From NCBI GenBank assembly GCA_963934925.1, contig CAWWAN010000001.1, positions 1-25,334 of the forward strand: a stretch of 25,334 nucleotides of DNA, in the 5' to 3' direction. A program made the position numbers and the translations under genes. The notes below the pieces were generated by a model. That model made no database searches. It was not told the origin of the DNA and saw only the letters and a list, made by a program, of their open reading frames with translations. Positions 1 through 11,977 of the stretch are shown here, one piece after another (the stretch's first letter is position 1; every line of letters begins with the position of its first letter). The stretch comes from an uncultured bacterium (GTDB lineage: Bacteria; Planctomycetota; UBA1135).

Positions 1-423
1 TCCGCTTGTGGATAGCGGCAAAAATCCTATTCTAAGTTGTACGTCTTTAGCCAAGAAAGAGGCTTGCTCTGATCTCAAAGAGGCAACAGCAGGAAGCCCA
101 CGCAGGGTAACTGTATAGTGTTGGCCTGGCAGAAAGGTGGAGTCCTCTAAAGTCGGGGTAGTAGGCAAGGAACCTAATATCTGAAGCGTGTTGCCAACTA
201 TCCCAACATCGTAGCCAATAACTATCTTGCCATTAGCATCGACTATTTGTACCGCGCTACTACGAACGGGGCGCTGCAACTTCTCATCAAAAACGACGAC
301 AATGGGCTGATTAATGGCCAACAGACTGCTTTTAGCTGTCGCCATCAAATCGACATTCAAGTATGTTTGCGACTGCTCTTCAGAGCAAGATACTAACAAT
401 AACAGCAAAAAGCCTCGGGTCAT
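1..423 (-). CDS. Predicted lipoprotein with an Ig-like (Big_5-like) domain; partial, runs off the left edge; not in the ORF track
   Basis: Manual translation is open from ATG at 423 to position 1 (141 codons): MTRGFLLLLLVSC-SEEQSQTYLNVDLMATAKSSLLAINQPIVVVFDEKLQRPVRSSAVQIVDANG...LPTTPTLEDSTFLPGQHYTVTLRGLP. Lipobox LVSC. The segment NQPIVVVFD...FLPGQHYTVTL resembles NRPIDIYFD...FVPGTVGYELLL in the upstream gene. An alternative TTG start lies at 465. Confidence 0.8.
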   Translation of the reverse strand, partial: MTRGFLLLLLVSCSEEQSQTYLNVDLMATAKSSLLAINQPIVVVFDEKLQRPVRSSAVQIVDANGKIVIGYDVGIVGNTLQILGSLPTTPTLEDSTFLPGQHYTVTLRGLPAVASLRSEQASFLAKDVQLRIGFLPLSTSG

Positions 424-441
424 AATGGACCCGAGGCTTTT
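407..441 (-). terminator. Intrinsic terminator-like hairpin, symmetric and possibly bidirectional
   Basis: Perfect 14-bp inverted repeat AAAAGCCTCGGGTC (408-421) / GACCCGAGGCTTTT (428-441) with a 6-nt loop. The minus strand ends in TTTTTG. It lies 17 nt after the stop of the 459..4001 gene. Confidence 0.7.
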
Positions 442-458
442 ATTAATAGCCGTCGTTA

Positions 459-3400
459 TTACCAAGCGTAAGGGATTTTAATGTATCCGAGTGCTGGACG
501 ACTTAAGCTATTAAAGCTGCCTTGGCTCAATGCGTCGATATCAAAGCTAACGCGATAACGAATAAAGCGTTTGCCATCGAGGTCGTCAAAGGTTGTACTG
601 TTTTCGCCAGTCCAGCTAGTAATTGTTGCTGCATCAGGCTCGAGGCTTTCTTGAGACACTCCATCAGCGCCCTGGAATTGAATGCGCACAGAAGACGATG
701 GTGGTAGCTTGTCCTTGATATCGCCAGAGGAAACACCGAAGAACTTGTTGTAGATGACAAAGGCACTACCGTCGATGATCGCTCCATCCGCAACCAGCGT
801 GGCAAGGACCAAATCACCATTACTGGTTAAATCGGCGCTAACGATTTCATGCGAAGTGAGTGCGGCAGTTGTAAAGTCACAACCTATTAATAACTTAGGA
901 TTGAACTTCCAGGTATCGGCAATGATTAAGTTAGTAAGGTCAATTGTCACACTAAATCCACTTGCATCAATAGTGAAGTCGCTAGCATCGCCATCAGTAA
1001 TCGGGGTAAGTTGAATTACCGTAGCAGTCGCGACATCGCTCTCGACATAACCTAAAGCATCTAGTCCTGCAAAGTTCAAATCGCCGGTAGCACCGTAGTC
1101 GGGGAATATCCCCACTCCGTTACTCGGCTGACGCAAGTTCGCCAGACCCGTATCAATCCACACCGATTGAACCTGTGATTGCGGTGAGAAGAATGGCATT
1201 AATGTAAATGGCACAGGCATAGCGTATAGCGCCAAAACCTGATCCTGGCGGTCAGAAACCACCGGGTTACCAAGATTTTCAAGAGTTACATACTGCTTGA
1301 ACGCCGCATCAACATCGCCATGGTATGCGATGTCGGCAATCGGGTCTGGGATATGTATTTGGATCACCCCGGAAGCGCCGGCACCACCACGCCCAGCCTG
1401 GAAACTTCCATTACCATCGTAATTATTCGGTGCATTCTCACTTGCAGGGAAGTTTGCCGCCAATTTGGAAGCAGACCAACCACGACGCCCACCAATAGCT
1501 TGCATAACGTAGTTAGGAATAGTGTTAGCAAAGAAAGTGTTAGGGTTGCTCGGAACACCGGGTACGCCGACGTTAATGGCACTTAAGTTAAGACCCGAAG
1601 CAGAGCTTAGAATCAAGTGTCCGCCTGAGCCACCGCCTGAGCCTGAGACCTGAGTTGTAGAACCATCTAGGCTACCACCTGAGGTAGAATCGCCACCAGC
1701 CCCGTTACCACCGTTCACCTTAAGCACTGCGGAGCTGCCGAGAATGATATGGCCAATCACGTGAATTTGTATTTGACCACCGCCGCCCCCACCTCCAGCA
1801 CCACGGAAGTAGCGCTGCGTATTGCCGTGAGGGAAAGCTGTGTCTGGGTAATGTAATGACAATGGCAAAGGTTGGTCGAGGCCGTCGTTAATGTAACGAA
1901 GGAGTGTTTGAAGGTCACCTGACCCACCGCCACCTGAACCTGCATACGGAGCCAGTAACTCGCCGGTAACAGTAGCAGGGCTCGCCCCAGTACCATCCCA
2001 GAAGAAACGTTCACCATAAAAATCGTTAGCTGTGCCGAACTCTGGATCGACTGAAGAAAAGACTGAGACACCACCACGCCCTCCATCTGGCCCGGAAACA
2101 GCTAAACCGTACCTTTCATCGTTGTTAATTGAACCACCGGTTTGAGCGGGGTCGAAGATTATGGTATCGAGAGCTCCGAGGTCTTGACCGTTATCAAGAT
2201 AGCCGCGAACAGCCTGTGGGAACGGCGCGGTGTCTATCTGGCTTGCACCAACAGACGATCCGCGCATTCCATCTTCGGCACCCATGAAATAAGTGTCGGG
2301 GTCTATTGTGTTATCGAAAATAGTGTGACGATCACCGCGCAGGTCAGGGCCGGAGTTGTCGTGGCTACTGGGCAAACTGCTTGATGGCCATTCGTCCCAG
2401 AAAACGGCGTCGGTTCGTGTTAGAGCAAAGCCACCCCCTCCACCACCACCGGCGACAAGGGATTCTGCGCCGATCAAGACTACACCGCCAGGGAAAATCG
2501 CCGCAGGCGATCGATCTTGTTGGTAACCACCTTCACCACCACTACCACCACCAAAGGCCGAGCCAAAAGGGCCGAAGCCATTTTCGCCCAACTGTGTACT
2601 GTAGTCGGTTGTAGTAGACGCATCGCCACCTTTCCCACCACCACAAGCACCTTCAGCGCCAAGAACCACTACATCGGGACGAGAGGTAAGGCCATCCGCG
2701 GCGTTGGCATCGTAACCACTCGCATCGACTTCTCCGTTAATTGTGGCGTCACCAGCGACATAAATGATTAGTGGATTATCGCCAAAAGCACGGATTGATG
2801 CTCCTGCATCAATAGTGAAATCATTGGTGTACATCACACCATCTACGACCGTGAACGTGTTCCCTAAGTCATCCGTTTGCTCGTCGGTTCCCGTTGTATT
2901 TATCTCAATATGTGAGTTTGTAAGGCGGAAATCTATTTTATCGCTACCATCGTTGTCTGGGAAGATGAACGCTGCCACGATCTCACCTTGATTAATTTCG
3001 GCGAGTGGCTGCGGCAAGCTAGCTAAGTAATCGAGTCCTGTTCCTACGGAGAAATCATCTATGAATTGGTCATAGGTAACATCATCTGGAACGACCGATG
3101 TGTCATTGTAAATATCAGCGAGGCTGCCTAACTCAACAATTGGTGAAACATCGCCACTGCTATTCTGATCACCGCCCAAATCTTCGAAGTCCGATGTCGT
3201 AACGACACGCACACTTCGCCCAGGAAGAAGCACACCACTTACCTGGAACAACAATTCTGCAGAATCGCCACAGTTATTGACCACGACCCATTCGCCTGGA
3301 ACTATTTGAGGAAGTGCAGGGAACTGGCCATCACTTAGAGAGTACTCAATGTATATCCGATCCGTTTGAAAATTTATAGGCGAGGGACCGACACCTTGAT

Positions 3401-4001
3401 CAAAGGTAACTTCAAAAGCAGCGCTCTCCATCGAGAGTAAACCCAATCCTGCAGGAACCTGAACATTCGTGATTTGCGGTGGAGTGAATAACGGGTCGTA
3501 AAAGTATGTCTCGCCCAACGCAGGCGTCACAAATCTACGAGTCAGTCCAGAAGAAAGGGGATGGCCTGCGACATCGCGAACCACGGTATATCCACCAGAA
3601 CTTTCTGTTGGAAGTAACAGTTCGTAGCCAACCGTGCCTGGCACAAAACCACCGTTGTCAAGCGCGAGGTTGTTTGGACACGCCGGAGTAAAGCGTATCG
3701 CGTGATCGGCACGTCCCTGAACATCAGAAATCAGCTCGTAAGTTCCTGTAACAGGAACTCCGAGATTAATAGTGTCAGTAGCCCGAAAGATAACCGAGCT
3801 AGTGCTTACCGAATTAAAATCAATAGCGCTATCAAAATAGATATCAATTGGGCGGTTAAGCAGCCATGTGTCACCATCGATGACAGTTGTATCCAACGCC
3901 ACAAAAGATGTTGACTCGGAAGAGGCCTCAGATTTGCATCCTGGGAGAAACGCCATCAAAGACGCCCCTAGGAGCACTGTTATTTGTAATTTGATTTTCA
4001 T
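459..4001 (-). CDS. 1180-aa predicted lipoprotein: N-terminal Ig-like domains, central glycine-rich domain, shared C-terminal beta-rich domain; function unknown
   Basis: Signal peptide with lipobox LPGC (Cys22). Big_5-like motif NRPIDIYFDSAIDFNSV and a second one, FEVTFDQGV...DFEDLGG. About ten polyGly tracts. C-terminus RFIRYRVSF...RPALGYIKIPYAW. Confidence 0.85.
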   Translation of the reverse strand: MKIKLQITVLLGASLMAFLPGCKSEASSESTSFVALDTTVIDGDTWLLNRPIDIYFDSAIDFNSVSTSSVIFRATDTINLGVPVTGTYELISDVQGRADHAIRFTPACPNNLALDNGGFVPGTVGYELLLPTESSGGYTVVRDVAGHPLSSGLTRRFVTPALGETYFYDPLFTPPQITNVQVPAGLGLLSMESAAFEVTFDQGVGPSPINFQTDRIYIEYSLSDGQFPALPQIVPGEWVVVNNCGDSAELLFQVSGVLLPGRSVRVVTTSDFEDLGGDQNSSGDVSPIVELGSLADIYNDTSVVPDDVTYDQFIDDFSVGTGLDYLASLPQPLAEINQGEIVAAFIFPDNDGSDKIDFRLTNSHIEINTTGTDEQTDDLGNTFTVVDGVMYTNDFTIDAGASIRAFGDNPLIIYVAGDATINGEVDASGYDANAADGLTSRPDVVVLGAEGACGGGKGGDASTTTDYSTQLGENGFGPFGSAFGGGSGGEGGYQQDRSPAAIFPGGVVLIGAESLVAGGGGGGGFALTRTDAVFWDEWPSSSLPSSHDNSGPDLRGDRHTIFDNTIDPDTYFMGAEDGMRGSSVGASQIDTAPFPQAVRGYLDNGQDLGALDTIIFDPAQTGGSINNDERYGLAVSGPDGGRGGVSVFSSVDPEFGTANDFYGERFFWDGTGASPATVTGELLAPYAGSGGGGSGDLQTLLRYINDGLDQPLPLSLHYPDTAFPHGNTQRYFRGAGGGGGGGQIQIHVIGHIILGSSAVLKVNGGNGAGGDSTSGGSLDGSTTQVSGSGGGSGGHLILSSASGLNLSAINVGVPGVPSNPNTFFANTIPNYVMQAIGGRRGWSASKLAANFPASENAPNNYDGNGSFQAGRGGAGASGVIQIHIPDPIADIAYHGDVDAAFKQYVTLENLGNPVVSDRQDQVLALYAMPVPFTLMPFFSPQSQVQSVWIDTGLANLRQPSNGVGIFPDYGATGDLNFAGLDALGYVESDVATATVIQLTPITDGDASDFTIDASGFSVTIDLTNLIIADTWKFNPKLLIGCDFTTAALTSHEIVSADLTSNGDLVLATLVADGAIIDGSAFVIYNKFFGVSSGDIKDKLPPSSSVRIQFQGADGVSQESLEPDAATITSWTGENSTTFDDLDGKRFIRYRVSFDIDALSQGSFNSLSRPALGYIKIPYAW

Positions 4002-7203: not shown

Positions 7204-10200
7204 TAATTTGTCCACGCAATTCCTAGGCCGTCAAGGGTTGGGCGCAAACCAGAATCTGGGTCTGCCATAAAGGAAACTCTAATCTGGACAAATCCGTAAC
7301 CACGGCCTTCCAGGTCGGTAATGTCTGTCGTCCAAGCAGATGGCGTTGCAACCGCGCCCGTACCGCCGACGAAATCGCCATAGTGGTCAAACGGGCTGTC
7401 ACCCTGATTAGTATCGCCTAGCTTGACGCTCGCGTCATTCAAAGGAGTGCTGTTCTCCAATGGGTTTGCATTCGCAGATACTGCCTGCGAGCCACGATAC
7501 TCGATGACCAACGAAGTGCCTAGTGGCTGCTTATCGGCTGCTGGCTCGACGACCACCCCGTCAATAGTGCCTATGTTCAAAGGGCCACTAATCGCAAACC
7601 AGTGACTATGCATACGCGACACCTCCAAAGAGAAATCCGCCGCTGCCCAGTACAACAAGTCATCACCCGCTGCTGCAGTCGCGCCACCTGGAAAGGGGAG
7701 CCACCCACCAACTGGGGCACTGCCAGACGTTCCAGCCTGGTCAGGCTGCACTCGCTGCCAATCACCAGATACGTTCTGGCCGCCAGAAGAATAAACCCGA
7801 AACATTGGAAGATTAAGCGGCGTAGTACCAGGCGTCATCATTAATGATGTCGTAAGCGAGTTAAGGCTTAGGGAATCCATTTGCGGATAAGTTCGAAAGC
7901 GCAACTGCAGCGGCAAAGCAACGGTTGGGATAAATCCTGGAAGATAGCGCTTGCCTAGCGGGTCCCATAGACCAAGAGTGTTCACGTAGTTATCAGTGGG
8001 CGCACCGCCGCCGTTGCCGTCTACCCCCCCAAGATAAGCCTGATCGAATGACGTATCGCGCCATACGAACTTCTCTGAAAAGCTAGTCCACGGCAGGTAC
8101 TCGATGCCATTCCACTGGTACTTATTGATGCCGCGAGCGAAATATGACGAGCTAAAGACCATCTTTTCGTCGATACCACTAGTACCGTCGGCCGTGAACC
8201 CCAGCACATTATCATTAAACGAAGAAGTTAGCATGCCCGATTGAGGGTAGGCTGGCGCATTTGTTCCCGGAGGTATATAGAGCTCATCCGGCATCGAAAA
8301 GGAGTGCGAAAGTGCTAACGAAATTTTATCGTAATTCTCATCAAAAACTACGCCGCCAAGCGGCGCCCAACTCATCCCCTCAACCGTGTAATTAAATTCG
8401 GAGGCCTCTTCATACCCAAAGCCGAAATCTTCAGGGCGATAAACATTCATCACCACCGCGCCCGCAAAGTTCAGTGGCTCGGAAGTCAGCCGGCCATTGG
8501 GGTGCCCCCCGACGGGATGCGCAGAAATCGCGAACTGTGTGTTGTCTGCTGACACCGTAAGCCTAGAAGGAACACGGCCCGTCAGCTGGCCAGAAAAGTC
8601 AAAGGAGTTGACCTGCCCCGCCCATTCAACATTACCATCACCATCTTCGTCAAGACCGACGCAAAGAAGTGAGAAATATTTTGTGTTTGTCGCCGCCTGG
8701 TGATCAATCTCAAGCTGAAAAGACTGATCGTTATTGCCCGCGACAAAAGACGAGAGCAGCACATTGTTACCCGACAGGTCCTTGATACCGTCTAGGCCAT
8801 CACGCAAGGCAACAACATAATTATCAAAAGTGTCGTTAGGATCTAAGTCTTGCCAACCTGCAACTGGCGTAATAGTAAAGGCGCGATTGCTCTCCGAGGC
8901 CACGACCTCTCCAAACAGGACGCGACCACCGTATTCTGCTTCTGCCGTTGCATTACCAGTGATATCGGCTCGGTAGTCATAACCACGTTGTCGCTCGATA
9001 AAACCTGAGACGGACTCGGAAGTGTCAATTTGGCGATACCACGCGGCTTGCGACTCTTTTACATCTTGCGGGTCAGGATTCAGATTGTCGTCTGGCTGAA
9101 TAATAACAAAGCTGCTCATCGAGCGCACAGTGGTATCATCGACTGCCTCGTCAAAGCGCACCGACACCGAAGCTGTATCGAGAATGCTGCCCTCGCCCGG
9201 GTCGGGAACTATGTCGAGGTAGCAGGCCTGGATATCACTATCAGCCGCTGAGTAGCGAGTTGACACCTGACCAGCCAAGGCCGTAGCGTCGAAAAGAGCA
9301 CCGTCATAATTGCTGTCAACACAATGCACAATGTATTCTGGAGGAGAGATGTCCTCGCGCGAGACCACTGTCCAGATGTTGTTCTTATTGTTACTATCCA
9401 CCACCTCTATGACATCCCCTACTTTGGGAGTCAAGGAAGCGCATCGCGCAGAGTCCACCGAGTAATTCACAACAATATCCGAGCCATCGCCCGAGTGACT
9501 ATCAATCGTAATCCCCTGAGTGCCTAGTAAACTTGGGCGAATGGCGTCACGCATAAACCCGCGGAAAGTGTCGAGAGCATTGCCTGTACGCATAGCCGCC
9601 AACAACTTGTAGCTATCGATACCAATGATTTGAACGGGCTCAGAGGCGTCCTTCCTACCCGGAGTATAGAATATTGATTGACCTTCATCGAGAGTGGACA
9701 GCACACTATACACTCCGTTAACTATGTCTATTTCAGTTGGAATGTAAACAACCAGATTGTAATCGTCGACATCTGTCGACTCACCGAAGCCAATCACGTT
9801 AGCCGGCAATTGTTCTTCGGCCGCTTCTATCTGAGATATTGTCGGGTCTATCAAGATACCGCCACGATGGCTAGTGTTCGTCGAGCTATCATTTTTCACG
9901 ACAAAACGTGAAGAAAACTGCAGCATGCCACTCGGGCTGGAAGGATTGCCTTGAAAAACCTGCACGGACGAAGAGTCAACCGAAGACGGGTTGATAGGCA
10001 AATTGAAATTCAATCGCACTGCTGCATTACGAGCCACCATATCGTAAGTTAATTCGCCGACAACATCGCGGCGAAGAACCGTTTGCAGATTATCTTTGTA
10101 GTCAAAAAGAAGTGCTTCGAATTCAGCAGATGCTTCTGGGAACTGAATAAGCAGTGACTCTTTCTGAGTGACTGCATTTGCTGTCAAAGAAACGATTGAC

Positions 10201-10573: not shown

Positions 10574-10590
10574 TGCAAATTTCATGCCAA
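10574..10590 (-). promoter_or_regulatory. Sigma54 (RpoN) -24/-12 promoter
   Basis: The minus strand reads TTGGCATG-AAAT-TTGCA, matching YTGGCACG-N4-TTGCW at 12 of 13 specified positions with exact GG-N10-GC spacing. It is intergenic and points at the lipoprotein genes. Predicted +1 near 10563. Confidence 0.8.
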
Positions 10591-10657: not shown

Positions 10658-11977
10658 TTAATTGCCCCAATTGAAACCGCACGCTTCGGCATCGGAGCGT
10701 TGGGCGAAGGGGTGCATGTTCTCAGGGCTAATGCGCTGCGCTGCCGGAGAATGCTGGGCGTGGAATTTTCGCGTCGAAGAGCAGCCAATATAATCAACAA
10801 CTAGCTGAGAATCGCACAAAGAACAGAGGAAAACCCTACGTGAACGGCCAAAAATGCGCCACGGGAAAGCCACGCCTTCGTGGCGACTCACACAGTTCTC
10901 GTTTGGGCATTCCTTTAAGCTATGCACCGTATTGCCCGCCGAAAGAGAGCGCAGCGGCAATAAGGAATAATCTTGCCCTGCCAAAGCCGCCAAAAACACT
11001 GCCTGACGAACAATCGGCCCATTTGCCGCCTGCTCAAAGTAAACAGCGCGCCGATCACCGTCTATTGAGGTCGGGAGCTCGTCACGCCGTGGCAGAGGAT
11101 GCAAAAACAAGCAGTTCTCGAGGAGTTTATTCTCAATAATCTCTGAATGAATACCTGGGAACACCCCACCAGCAGGCATTGCCCCGCGCTCGACCTGCAA
11201 TCGGGTCAGATACAGCGCATCTAAATCTTCGAGTTTCAAAACGTCGGTGCCAAACAAATCTTTTTGCACCAATCCGCGCGGCTCAATAATGCGCGCCTCG
11301 GAGTTACCCGTCCAGTCAGAAAATAGCGGATGCGAGACCCATCGCAATCGATAGTCAAAGTAGTCAACAATACGCTGCTCGAAGCTGGGAGCCCAGTCAA
11401 GACCGGGCCCAGGTAACAGCACAATTTTCACGCCGAGCATAGCCAGCGACCATGCTAAAGAACGCACGGTACGGCCATTGGTCAAATCGCCAAGCAAAGC
11501 CACCGTCTTGCCTTGAAACTTTCCATCCCATTTTTTGTGGAGGGTGTAGAGGTCGACCAACGTTTGGGTTGGATGCCCCAATCGCCCATCACCACCGTTT
11601 ATCAGTGGTATCTCAGAATAACGCGAGGCATAGCGTGATGCGCCGTCATACGGATGACGTAGCACCATCAAGTCGGCATAGCTGCTGACAACGCGTGTCA
11701 TGTCGGCTAAAGATTCGCCTTTAGCGCCCGATGTAGATTTCGAATCGCTAACGGAAATGACGCTCGCGCCCAAACGGTGCGCAGCAGATTCGAAGGAAAG
11801 CCTAGTGCGCGTTGACGGTTCGTTAAAAACAGTGGCGATCACCTTACCGTTTAATGCCTGCGAATACTTTGACGGCTGGGCCTCGATGTCTGCAGCGCAT
11901 GCAAACAGAGACTCTAGAAATGTCGGGCTTAGTGCTTCCGAAGAATGAAGCCCGTCGATGGTCGGCAAAATACTCAC
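10658..11977 (-). CDS. pyrB: Aspartate carbamoyltransferase catalytic chain with a fused PyrI-like zinc domain and a further small C-terminal domain
   Basis: ATCase motifs FNEPSTRTRLSFE, KGESL, HPTQTLVDL, GDLTNGRTVRSL, YLTRLQVER, HPLPR. C-terminal CPNENC...CSLC. GTG start. Confidence 0.93.
   Translation of the reverse strand: MSILPTIDGLHSSEALSPTFLESLFACAADIEAQPSKYSQALNGKVIATVFNEPSTRTRLSFESAAHRLGASVISVSDSKSTSGAKGESLADMTRVVSSYADLMVLRHPYDGASRYASRYSEIPLINGGDGRLGHPTQTLVDLYTLHKKWDGKFQGKTVALLGDLTNGRTVRSLAWSLAMLGVKIVLLPGPGLDWAPSFEQRIVDYFDYRLRWVSHPLFSDWTGNSEARIIEPRGLVQKDLFGTDVLKLEDLDALYLTRLQVERGAMPAGGVFPGIHSEIIENKLLENCLFLHPLPRRDELPTSIDGDRRAVYFEQAANGPIVRQAVFLAALAGQDYSLLPLRSLSAGNTVHSLKECPNENCVSRHEGVAFPWRIFGRSRRVFLCSLCDSQLVVDYIGCSSTRKFHAQHSPAAQRISPENMHPFAQRSDAEACGFNWGN

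Follow-up and report, generated by a model that had tools for sequence, protein, structure and literature searches.

A conserved terminator-like hairpin overlapping the signal-peptide codons of a lipoprotein gene in uncultured marine Planctomycetota

From our structural and comparative analyses of a 25,334-nt stretch of DNA from an uncultured planctomycetotal bacterium (contig CAWWAN010000001.1, here C1; the whole stretch is referred to as the window), we consider it probable that a minus-strand hairpin at positions 408..441 is a conserved sense-strand Rho-independent terminator, which through compaction now overlaps the first codons of the gene that follows and gates that gene by read-through. 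The gene concerned, gene 4, encodes a small lipoprotein and follows three genes for large lipoproteins (genes 1-3). The data presented here directly support the structure, the conservation of the hairpin and its strand specificity, the resemblance to other terminators of the genome, the reality of gene 4 and the synteny of the junction. As an internal terminator, the hairpin would likely gate not only gene 4, but also the prepilin peptidase and OmpA-like genes downstream of it. That the gene 4 product is a subunit kept sub-stoichiometric to the three large proteins, as has been proposed for this DNA, is a conjecture.

The hairpin has a perfect 14-bp stem, made up of 10 G/C-rich pairs and four A-U pairs, and a 6-nt loop, with a calculated folding energy of -24.5 kcal/mol. 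Read along the minus strand, it consists of the 5' arm AAAAGCCTCGGGTC (441-428), the loop CATTAT (427-422) and the 3' arm GACCCGAGGCTTTT (421-408), followed by T407 and G406. This matches exactly the hairpin string described in an earlier, sequence-only reading of the stretch. Downstream of the 3' arm the sequence continues as TGCTGTTATT; the U-rich tract that adjoins the G/C stem is TTTTTGCTGTTATTG. The U-rich tail TTTTTGCTGTT (401..411, with a T-run at 411-407) doubles as codons Phe5-Leu8 of gene 4, where the hydrophobic core of the signal peptide starts. A candidate start codon, ATG (421..423), lies across the junction of loop and 3' arm: the loop ends with its A and T, and the 3' arm begins with its G, which is paired. 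Codons 2-6 after this ATG, ACC CGA GGC TTT TTG (TRGFL), are written in the 3' arm and the T-run, and were read and translated by us just as had been claimed. The spacer between the gene-3 stop codon and the hairpin (442..458) is A/T-rich, 17 nt long, and holds an in-frame ACG at 453-451. Folding of the 101-nt hairpin context gave -37.6 kcal/mol (z = -6.4), which none of 200 dinucleotide shuffles equalled. The hairpin is the top-scoring terminator-like match in the first 12 kb of the window. It matches no known RNA family, the Rfam search (E-value mode) over positions 1-1200 having returned sub-threshold noise only. In a genome-wide check it was found in a single copy and in no repeat family, and a repeat-element origin in this genome was rejected on these grounds.

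The source genome (G000) is a 1.49-Mb, 75%-complete metagenome-assembled genome (MAG). We scanned it for stems of 7 bp or more that are followed by a T-rich tail, using a crude gene map of longest open reading frames (ORFs). Stems of at least 11 bp were found at 69 sites, 38 of which lie just past a co-directional stop codon, typically 15-22 nt away, from which we conclude that this bacterium uses canonical intrinsic terminators. Many of the stop-proximal hairpins carry an A-tract on the 5' side and a T-tract on the 3' side. Positioned 17 nt past the gene-3 stop, hairpin 408-441 falls within the genome-wide mode of 15-22 nt, and its rank among the 48 stop-proximal sites is 7th for stem energy and 19th for TransTerm-type U-tail score (-4.93). 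Judged by its sequence, it is an ordinary, fairly strong intrinsic terminator.

The hairpin is found at the same place in four other genomes of the genus, with protein identities of 52-91%, and in five metagenome contigs. Our junction alignment comprises eight sequences from five lineages of the genus. A search for further loci with a four-sequence alignment returned the same four genus genomes together with six near-identical metagenome contigs, and yielded few new hairpin variants. Pairing is kept in 96.4% of the cells of the eight-sequence alignment, compared with only 30-63% for slid registers. Both sides have changed at three pairs, and 0 of 500 column shuffles reached the observed covariation score. 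In G001, GGGTC/GACCC has become GAACC/GGCTC, and in G002 the inner stem has been rewritten to TCATCA/TGATGC. Conservation with compensatory changes in relatives, which the sequence-only reading had named as a check on its proposal, was thereby found within the genus. The non-coding 5' arm is nearly invariant, and the 17-nt spacer is almost free to vary. The interval between stop and start has zero indels in every genus member, and for that reason spacer length is uninformative on conservation of the reading frame. An outer helix predicted in G000 and G005 is missing in G004, G001 and G002; no conserved antiterminator alternative was found in the alignment.

The wobble pairs reveal the strand on which the structure is maintained. 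All four wobble cells in the alignment are G.U on the gene strand, equivalent to C.A on the opposite strand, which indicates that the structure is selected in the sense RNA, and not as DNA, as a protein-binding palindrome or in a plus-strand transcript. The alternative that the hairpin serves only as the terminator of a plus-strand transcript is disfavoured by this strand specificity. We also rejected a plus-strand terminator role as such, since neither C1 nor the adjoining end of contig C89 of the same genome carries a converging plus-strand gene.

Comparable hairpins extend well beyond the genus. We examined 27 junctions from at least 20 genera, anchored on the lipobox Cys and the gene-3 stop, and scored hairpins with a folding energy of -20 kcal/mol or lower and a T-rich tail. 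Gene 4 directly follows a gene-3 homologue in all 27 junctions, and 18 of them contain a strong T-tailed hairpin between the gene-3 stop and the gene-4 lipobox. The same criteria gave one match in 51,311 nt of the same strand elsewhere in these loci. The sequences of the junction hairpins are unrelated from genus to genus, and most begin 14-21 nt past the stop. Their layouts differ. In G006, G009, G016, G026, G035, G030 and G034 the hairpin is intergenic, with the start codon located 3' of it. In the genus of the window (g1) and in G020, G015, G010, G027 and G012, only 1-27 nt separate the end of the hairpin from the Cys codon, and the hairpin must therefore overlap signal-peptide codons. G011 and G014 have an intermediate layout. 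The G/C arms encode Arg, Gly, Pro and Ala, and the T-tails encode Phe and Leu, as in GFL (G000, G010), FFS (G014) and VFLF (G027).

Some of these junctions have features of their own. At L030 (G014) and L032 (G010), the three loop nucleotides of the hairpin form an in-frame codon, GTG in G014 and TTG in G010, and a start at these codons would give good signal peptides. These are independent loop-start layouts that resemble the one in G000. At L036:518-578 (G027), the signal-peptide codons of gene 4 contain a perfect palindrome of 26 bp with a T-tail, a member of a repetitive extragenic palindrome (REP)-like family of which that genome has 15 or more copies.

Gene 4 is a real gene, encoding a lipoprotein of ~256 aa with two immunoglobulin (Ig)-like domains in tandem. 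The window, which starts at the end of contig C1, holds its first 141 codons (1..423, minus strand). The last 69 nt of C89 (L004 6982-7050) are identical to window positions 1-69 at 67 of 69 positions, with two mismatches. C1 and C89 are neighbours in the genome, and the assembly break, probably caused by strain heterogeneity at that spot, cuts through gene 4. The ORF is therefore not contained within positions 1-465, as had been supposed: through the 69-nt overlap the frame continues on C89 (L004:6634-7050, minus strand) and runs on to a stop, and the C-terminus (...HYPLVSNN) matches that of complete orthologues. Homologues occur in 28 of 41 related genomes, down to the level of the order, mostly as open frames of ~260-330 aa, and the gene is under clear purifying selection; the named relatives are MAGs of marine Planctomycetota. 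With this distribution and its synteny at every junction examined, the fourth lipoprotein gene postulated by the sequence-only reading proved to be genuine. It can hardly be called hidden, as its orthologues are already present in public records as hypothetical proteins.

The predicted signal peptide MTRGFLLLLLVSC has a positive charge in its n-region (Arg3), the hydrophobic core GFLLLLLV and the lipobox LVSC (385..396, minus strand; Cys13 codon at 387-385), which agrees with the lipoprotein consensus [LVI][ASTVI][GAS]C, and the lipobox Cys is invariant in an alignment of nine gene-4 orthologues. The genome encodes both Lgt (PF01790 on C95, 181.9 bits) and signal peptidase II (LspA; PF01252 on C66, 94.4 bits), each above the curated cut-off. 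An AlphaFold (AF2) model of gene 4, with a predicted local distance difference test score (pLDDT) of 87.5, consists of two beta-sandwich domains, the best structural matches of which are generic Ig-like domains in tandem, namely L,D-transpeptidase BIg domains, filamin and the Sap S-layer protein. The N-terminal domain is weakly similar to that of gene 3 (E = 0.003). In Pfam and NCBIfam, genes 3 and 4 had no match, and Big_5 was the only one for genes 1 and 2.

A further hairpin in the same genome shows that the arrangement is not special to gene 4. At C30:871-904 (plus strand; L042:372-405), 29 nt past a stop codon, lies a terminator-like hairpin of -22.8 kcal/mol with the tail TTCTTTTTT. The sole possible ATG (C30:882) for a 721-aa secreted protein, M(C/R)KRTTILSFLAA..., is located inside its 5' arm; an in-frame TAG lies 12 nt upstream of this ATG, and the later in-frame TTGs would lose the signal peptide. 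The arrangement is kept in 6 of 6 genus genomes, with changes in both arms in G002. Going by the sequence of this second locus, a start codon inside such a hairpin is used in this genus. Two other stop-proximal hairpins of the genome overlap the 5' end of the gene after them. One, on C32 (minus strand, hairpin 556-590), does so with the gene for a lipoprotein-like protein MLTLFFYSLHLGLVAGC, the candidate starts of which are a loop TTG and a GTG within an overlap with the preceding gene. The other, on C9 (minus strand, hairpin 7559-7588), does so with the gene for a GT2-like protein MGTMISIVVPVLNE, with an ATG at the 5' edge of the hairpin.

In the explanation that we favour, transcripts spanning genes 1-3 would originate probably from a sigma54-type promoter, and most of them would stop at the U-tract (411-401), after the 17-nt spacer and the hairpin that follow the gene-3 stop; both termination and its efficiency are predicted from the sequence. 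In this small-genome genus, compaction would have brought the terminator into the start of the following coding sequence, such that the Thr/Ala-Arg-Gly codons of the n-region are written in the G/C-rich 3' arm, and the Phe/Leu codons with which the hydrophobic core begins are written in the U-tract. Gene 4 would then be expressed only from the minority of transcripts that read through, and so, probably, would the prepilin peptidase and OmpA-like genes. Translation of gene 4 might proceed very inefficiently from the loop ATG at 423, or ribosomes leaving gene 3 might restart at an in-frame TTG at 465 and unwind the stem.

Several observations weigh against this explanation. The covariation stems from only five independent lineages, and the conservation of the T-run throughout the genus is not independent evidence, as the T-run also encodes Phe/Leu; the 3' arm, too, is coding. 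Neither stem energy nor U-tail is weakened relative to the terminators at operon ends, and read-through might be too low for a gene under purifying selection unless termination is suppressed. Nine of the 27 junctions have no strong T-tailed hairpin, and in several of these (G022, G023, G029, G007) gene 4 starts 0-8 nt past the stop, which implies that genes 3 and 4 are co-transcribed where the hairpin is missing. Attenuation is thus common in, and not obligatory for, the cluster.

The candidate starts of gene 4 bear on a closely related alternative, in which the terminator is the same and the productive start lies upstream, at the TTG at 465, reached by termination-reinitiation. The hairpin would then form codons 9-20 of a 26-residue signal peptide, the start would not be concealed by it, and ATG 423 would be an internal Met. 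We rate this alternative as quite possible, a little short of an even chance. As for the start codon itself, ATG 423 and TTG 465 have roughly even odds, and both may be used. The in-frame TTG (463..465, minus strand) shares bases with the TGG-TAA that ends gene 3 (TTGGTAA, stop at 461-459); the sequence-only reading had noted its overlap with the upstream stop. TTGGTAA is present in all genus members, yet the conserved Ala-Trp-stop codons of gene 3 make it obligatory, and its presence is therefore not evidence for its use. In all five lineages no stop interrupts the frame that starts at TTG 465; the ~6-7 independent stop codons in the spacers all fall in the other two frames, which has a chance probability of ~0.06-0.09 and is weak evidence. 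Ten codons upstream of the hairpin ATG, at 453-451, G004 and G001 have an in-frame ATG, G005 a GTG and G002 a TTG, which speaks for an upstream start, as do the NCBI gene calls of 266 aa where such an NTG exists; other public calls give 256 aa (ATG 423). Against it, the same position is ACG in G000 and four metagenome contigs, and an ATG in or beside the loop is kept in every genus member, even in G002 with its rewritten inner stem, where a TTG occupies the aligned position and ATG follows one codon later. Counting from ATG 423, 12 residues precede the Cys, and from TTG 465, 26; relatives have 14-24 and ~15-25 is usual. Short signal peptides are normal in the gene-4 family, for example VRIRWGFLLLASLAC in G007 (locus L016), and the start on C30 sits inside its hairpin.

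The fold itself argues for the upstream start. A helix of -24.5 kcal/mol over a start codon should nearly abolish de novo initiation, here at ATG 423, and a ribosome terminating at 461-459, 17 nt short of the stem, should not open it. In G020, G015, G027 and G012 a start upstream of the hairpin is the only feasible one. At L028 (G012) and L015 (G022), no ATG, GTG or TTG precedes the gene-4 lipobox, and the sole candidate is a CTG overlapping TGG-TAA (CTGGTAA) at exactly the position of TTG 465, which suggests reinitiation at a non-canonical codon. Whichever start is used, signal peptidase II cleaves in front of Cys13 and leaves an identical mature lipoprotein, the N-terminus of which can therefore not reveal the start codon. 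The identity of the mature protein probably explains both the ability of this stretch to accommodate an RNA signal and the drift of starts between genera.

Other explanations assign the hairpin a different role. Since the terminator is not visibly weakened, ribosome-coupled read-through is the more interesting option, and the hairpin could be a translation-gated attenuator without a sensor, in which ribosome loading competes with stem formation and ties gene 4, the prepilin peptidase and OmpA to the translation of gene 3. A ribosome reinitiating at TTG 465 would block the stem, as would a 30S subunit that loads on the loop ATG before the polymerase has left the U-tract; the hairpin would lie inside the ribosome initiation footprint, and the read-through transcripts would be those already loaded with ribosomes. 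Compact-genome marine Planctomycetota would, on this account, recurrently overprint terminators on signal-peptide codons (Arg/Gly/Pro/Ala in the n-region, Phe/Leu in the hydrophobic h-region). We regard such gating as unlikely, if worth keeping in mind. It is rather improbable that the hairpin is a 3' stabiliser or processing barrier for the mRNA of genes 1-3, with no release of polymerase and with differential decay setting the ratio. A stable stem just past the last highly expressed gene would also fit an exonuclease barrier, and the folding energy of internal terminators is reported to affect the stability of the upstream transcript as well (PMC9045158). However, the adjacent U-run, its A-tract partner and the spacing of 14-21 nt from the stop are hallmarks of terminators, which recur in the unrelated junction hairpins, including the non-coding ones of G026, G034 and G006, and in the operon-end terminators of G000.

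Were the hairpin instead to end transcription of the gene 1-3 operon completely, gene 4 would form a separate unit with those that follow, with its own promoter or with a leaderless transcript starting in the loop or past it. In G000, G004 and G006, gene 4 is indeed followed by the prepilin peptidase and OmpA-like genes without a terminator (only the peptidase was noted in G006), and the 100-200 nt between hairpin and start in G030, G037, G034 and G026 would leave room for a promoter. There is no such room in genus g1, however, where any promoter further upstream would feed the same terminator, and the abutting or overlapping of genes 3 and 4 in hairpin-less relatives indicates co-transcription. 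Scans for the sigma70 and sigma54 consensus types, which do not cover the promoter types of the phylum, revealed no promoter-like element between hairpin and gene 4. A leaderless start at A423 and a promoter in the spacer were both rejected: the bases at about -12 to -7 of A423 (CTCGGG) are not -10-like, and the spacer is not conserved. We consider a separate unit to be distinctly improbable. Least credible of all, and in our opinion very nearly negligible, is a chance palindrome or a selfish REP-like insertion without function. The junction hairpin of G027 does belong to a palindromic repeat family, but the hairpin of G000 is unique in its genome, its changes are compensatory and its wobbles strand-specific, and 18 of 27 junctions carry such a hairpin against one match in 51 kb of background.

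The gene cluster in which the hairpin lies is a candidate uncharacterised envelope or surface assembly. It is made up of three Gly-rich Ig-like lipoproteins of ~1100 aa, the two-Ig lipoprotein, a prepilin peptidase, an OmpA-like lipoprotein and a pilin-like protein. Genes 1-3 encode 1078, ~1061 and 1180 aa, each with a lipobox. Gene 3 (459..4001, minus strand, stop TAA at 461-459) has a signal peptide ending in LPGC and a Gly-rich middle, and ends in ...PYAW-TAA, the C-terminal ...P(Y/F)xW* being kept in relatives. Genes 1 and 2 overlap at TAATG and genes 2 and 3 are 16 nt apart, with no Shine-Dalgarno sequence evident at either junction. In the 218-nt gap upstream of gene 1 lies a sigma54-type -24/-12 element, TGGCATGAAATTTGCA (10574..10589, minus strand), which is the sole zero-mismatch match to TGGCAY-N5-TTGCW in the window. 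This predicted element likely drives the transcripts that reach the hairpin. On the 3' side of gene 4, a 49-nt spacer without a hairpin is followed by the genes for an A24 prepilin peptidase, an OmpA-domain lipoprotein and a pilin-like protein. The first two are also found behind gene 4 in G004, and the peptidase behind gene 4 in G006, which belongs to another genus. Because both follow gene 4 without a terminator, any effect of the hairpin on transcription would reach the prepilin peptidase and OmpA-like genes too. Only a few genes further downstream, L004:3-2534 (minus strand, on C89) encodes another large Gly-rich lipoprotein of >844 aa with a weak Big_5 match and the lipobox LGC; this protein is likely a paralogue of the cluster proteins, with a composition like that of gene 3. 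Window positions 10658-11977 (minus strand) hold a single 439-aa ORF with both PyrB domains and a weak match to the PyrI C-terminal zinc domain (20.5 bits, cut-off 23.4).

These results provide comparative evidence for internal terminators in an uncultured, poorly studied phylum. They suggest that a terminator can be written in the first codons of the next gene, preferentially those of a cleavable signal peptide, which are loosely constrained and in which Arg/Gly and Phe/Leu codons suit a stem and a U-tract, respectively. The terminator would be the likely boundary between the abundant and the scarce components of the cluster. For annotation, the consequences are that start-codon calls for such genes are unreliable, as illustrated by the conflict in public records between 256 and 266 aa, and that terminator predictors that mask coding sequence will miss such sites.

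Stem-loops past major-subunit genes are found after papA in the pap operon and, as a terminator, between gene VIII and gene III of the filamentous phage f1, and those after major pilin or puf genes act as 3' stabilisers or processing barriers. The pap and phage f1 systems share with the cluster the order of one or more abundant structural genes, a hairpin and then low-copy secreted components made from read-through or less stable RNA, but their hairpins are intergenic, whereas the one described here overlaps signal-peptide codons. To our knowledge, overlap of the hairpin with a downstream signal peptide is not a described feature of pap or phage f1. The sequestration of start sites in hairpins, by occlusion of the Shine-Dalgarno sequence or of the start codon, and its relief by translational coupling, as in MS2, is likewise an established concept. 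As in MS2-type coupling, a candidate start lies within a very stable helix directly past another ORF; in contrast to it, the upstream stop is located 17 nt before the stem, so that the terminating ribosome should not melt it, and ATG 423 is only a candidate start.

Internal terminators set subunit ratios in the ABC importer operons of Ruminiclostridium cellulolyticum, where they follow the genes for substrate-binding proteins (PMC9045158). The hairpin at 408-441 resembles them in being a U-tailed stem-loop between co-directional genes of a cluster, past genes that are expected to be abundantly expressed, and in being conserved in relatives. It differs in that its 3' arm and U-tract are signal-peptide codons and that a candidate start lies in its loop; moreover, the clostridial terminators are described as U-poor (PMC9045158), whereas by sequence scores the terminator here is no weaker than operon-end ones. 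Premature terminators of 5' leaders and riboswitches can also extend past start codons, 90.6% of their 3' ends being reported to fall between -128 and +16 of the start codon (PMC13613805). In both cases terminator and translation start region share sequence, but unlike leader and riboswitch terminators, the hairpin here has no sensor or antiterminator alternative that we could find, judging by Rfam and by the lack of conservation of the outer helix. In a limited literature search we found no description of systematic terminator overprinting on signal-peptide codons. Internal terminators themselves are known; what sets the present case apart is this systematic overprinting on signal-peptide codons, at two conserved loci in the genus and, for the junction between genes 3 and 4, in several other genera.

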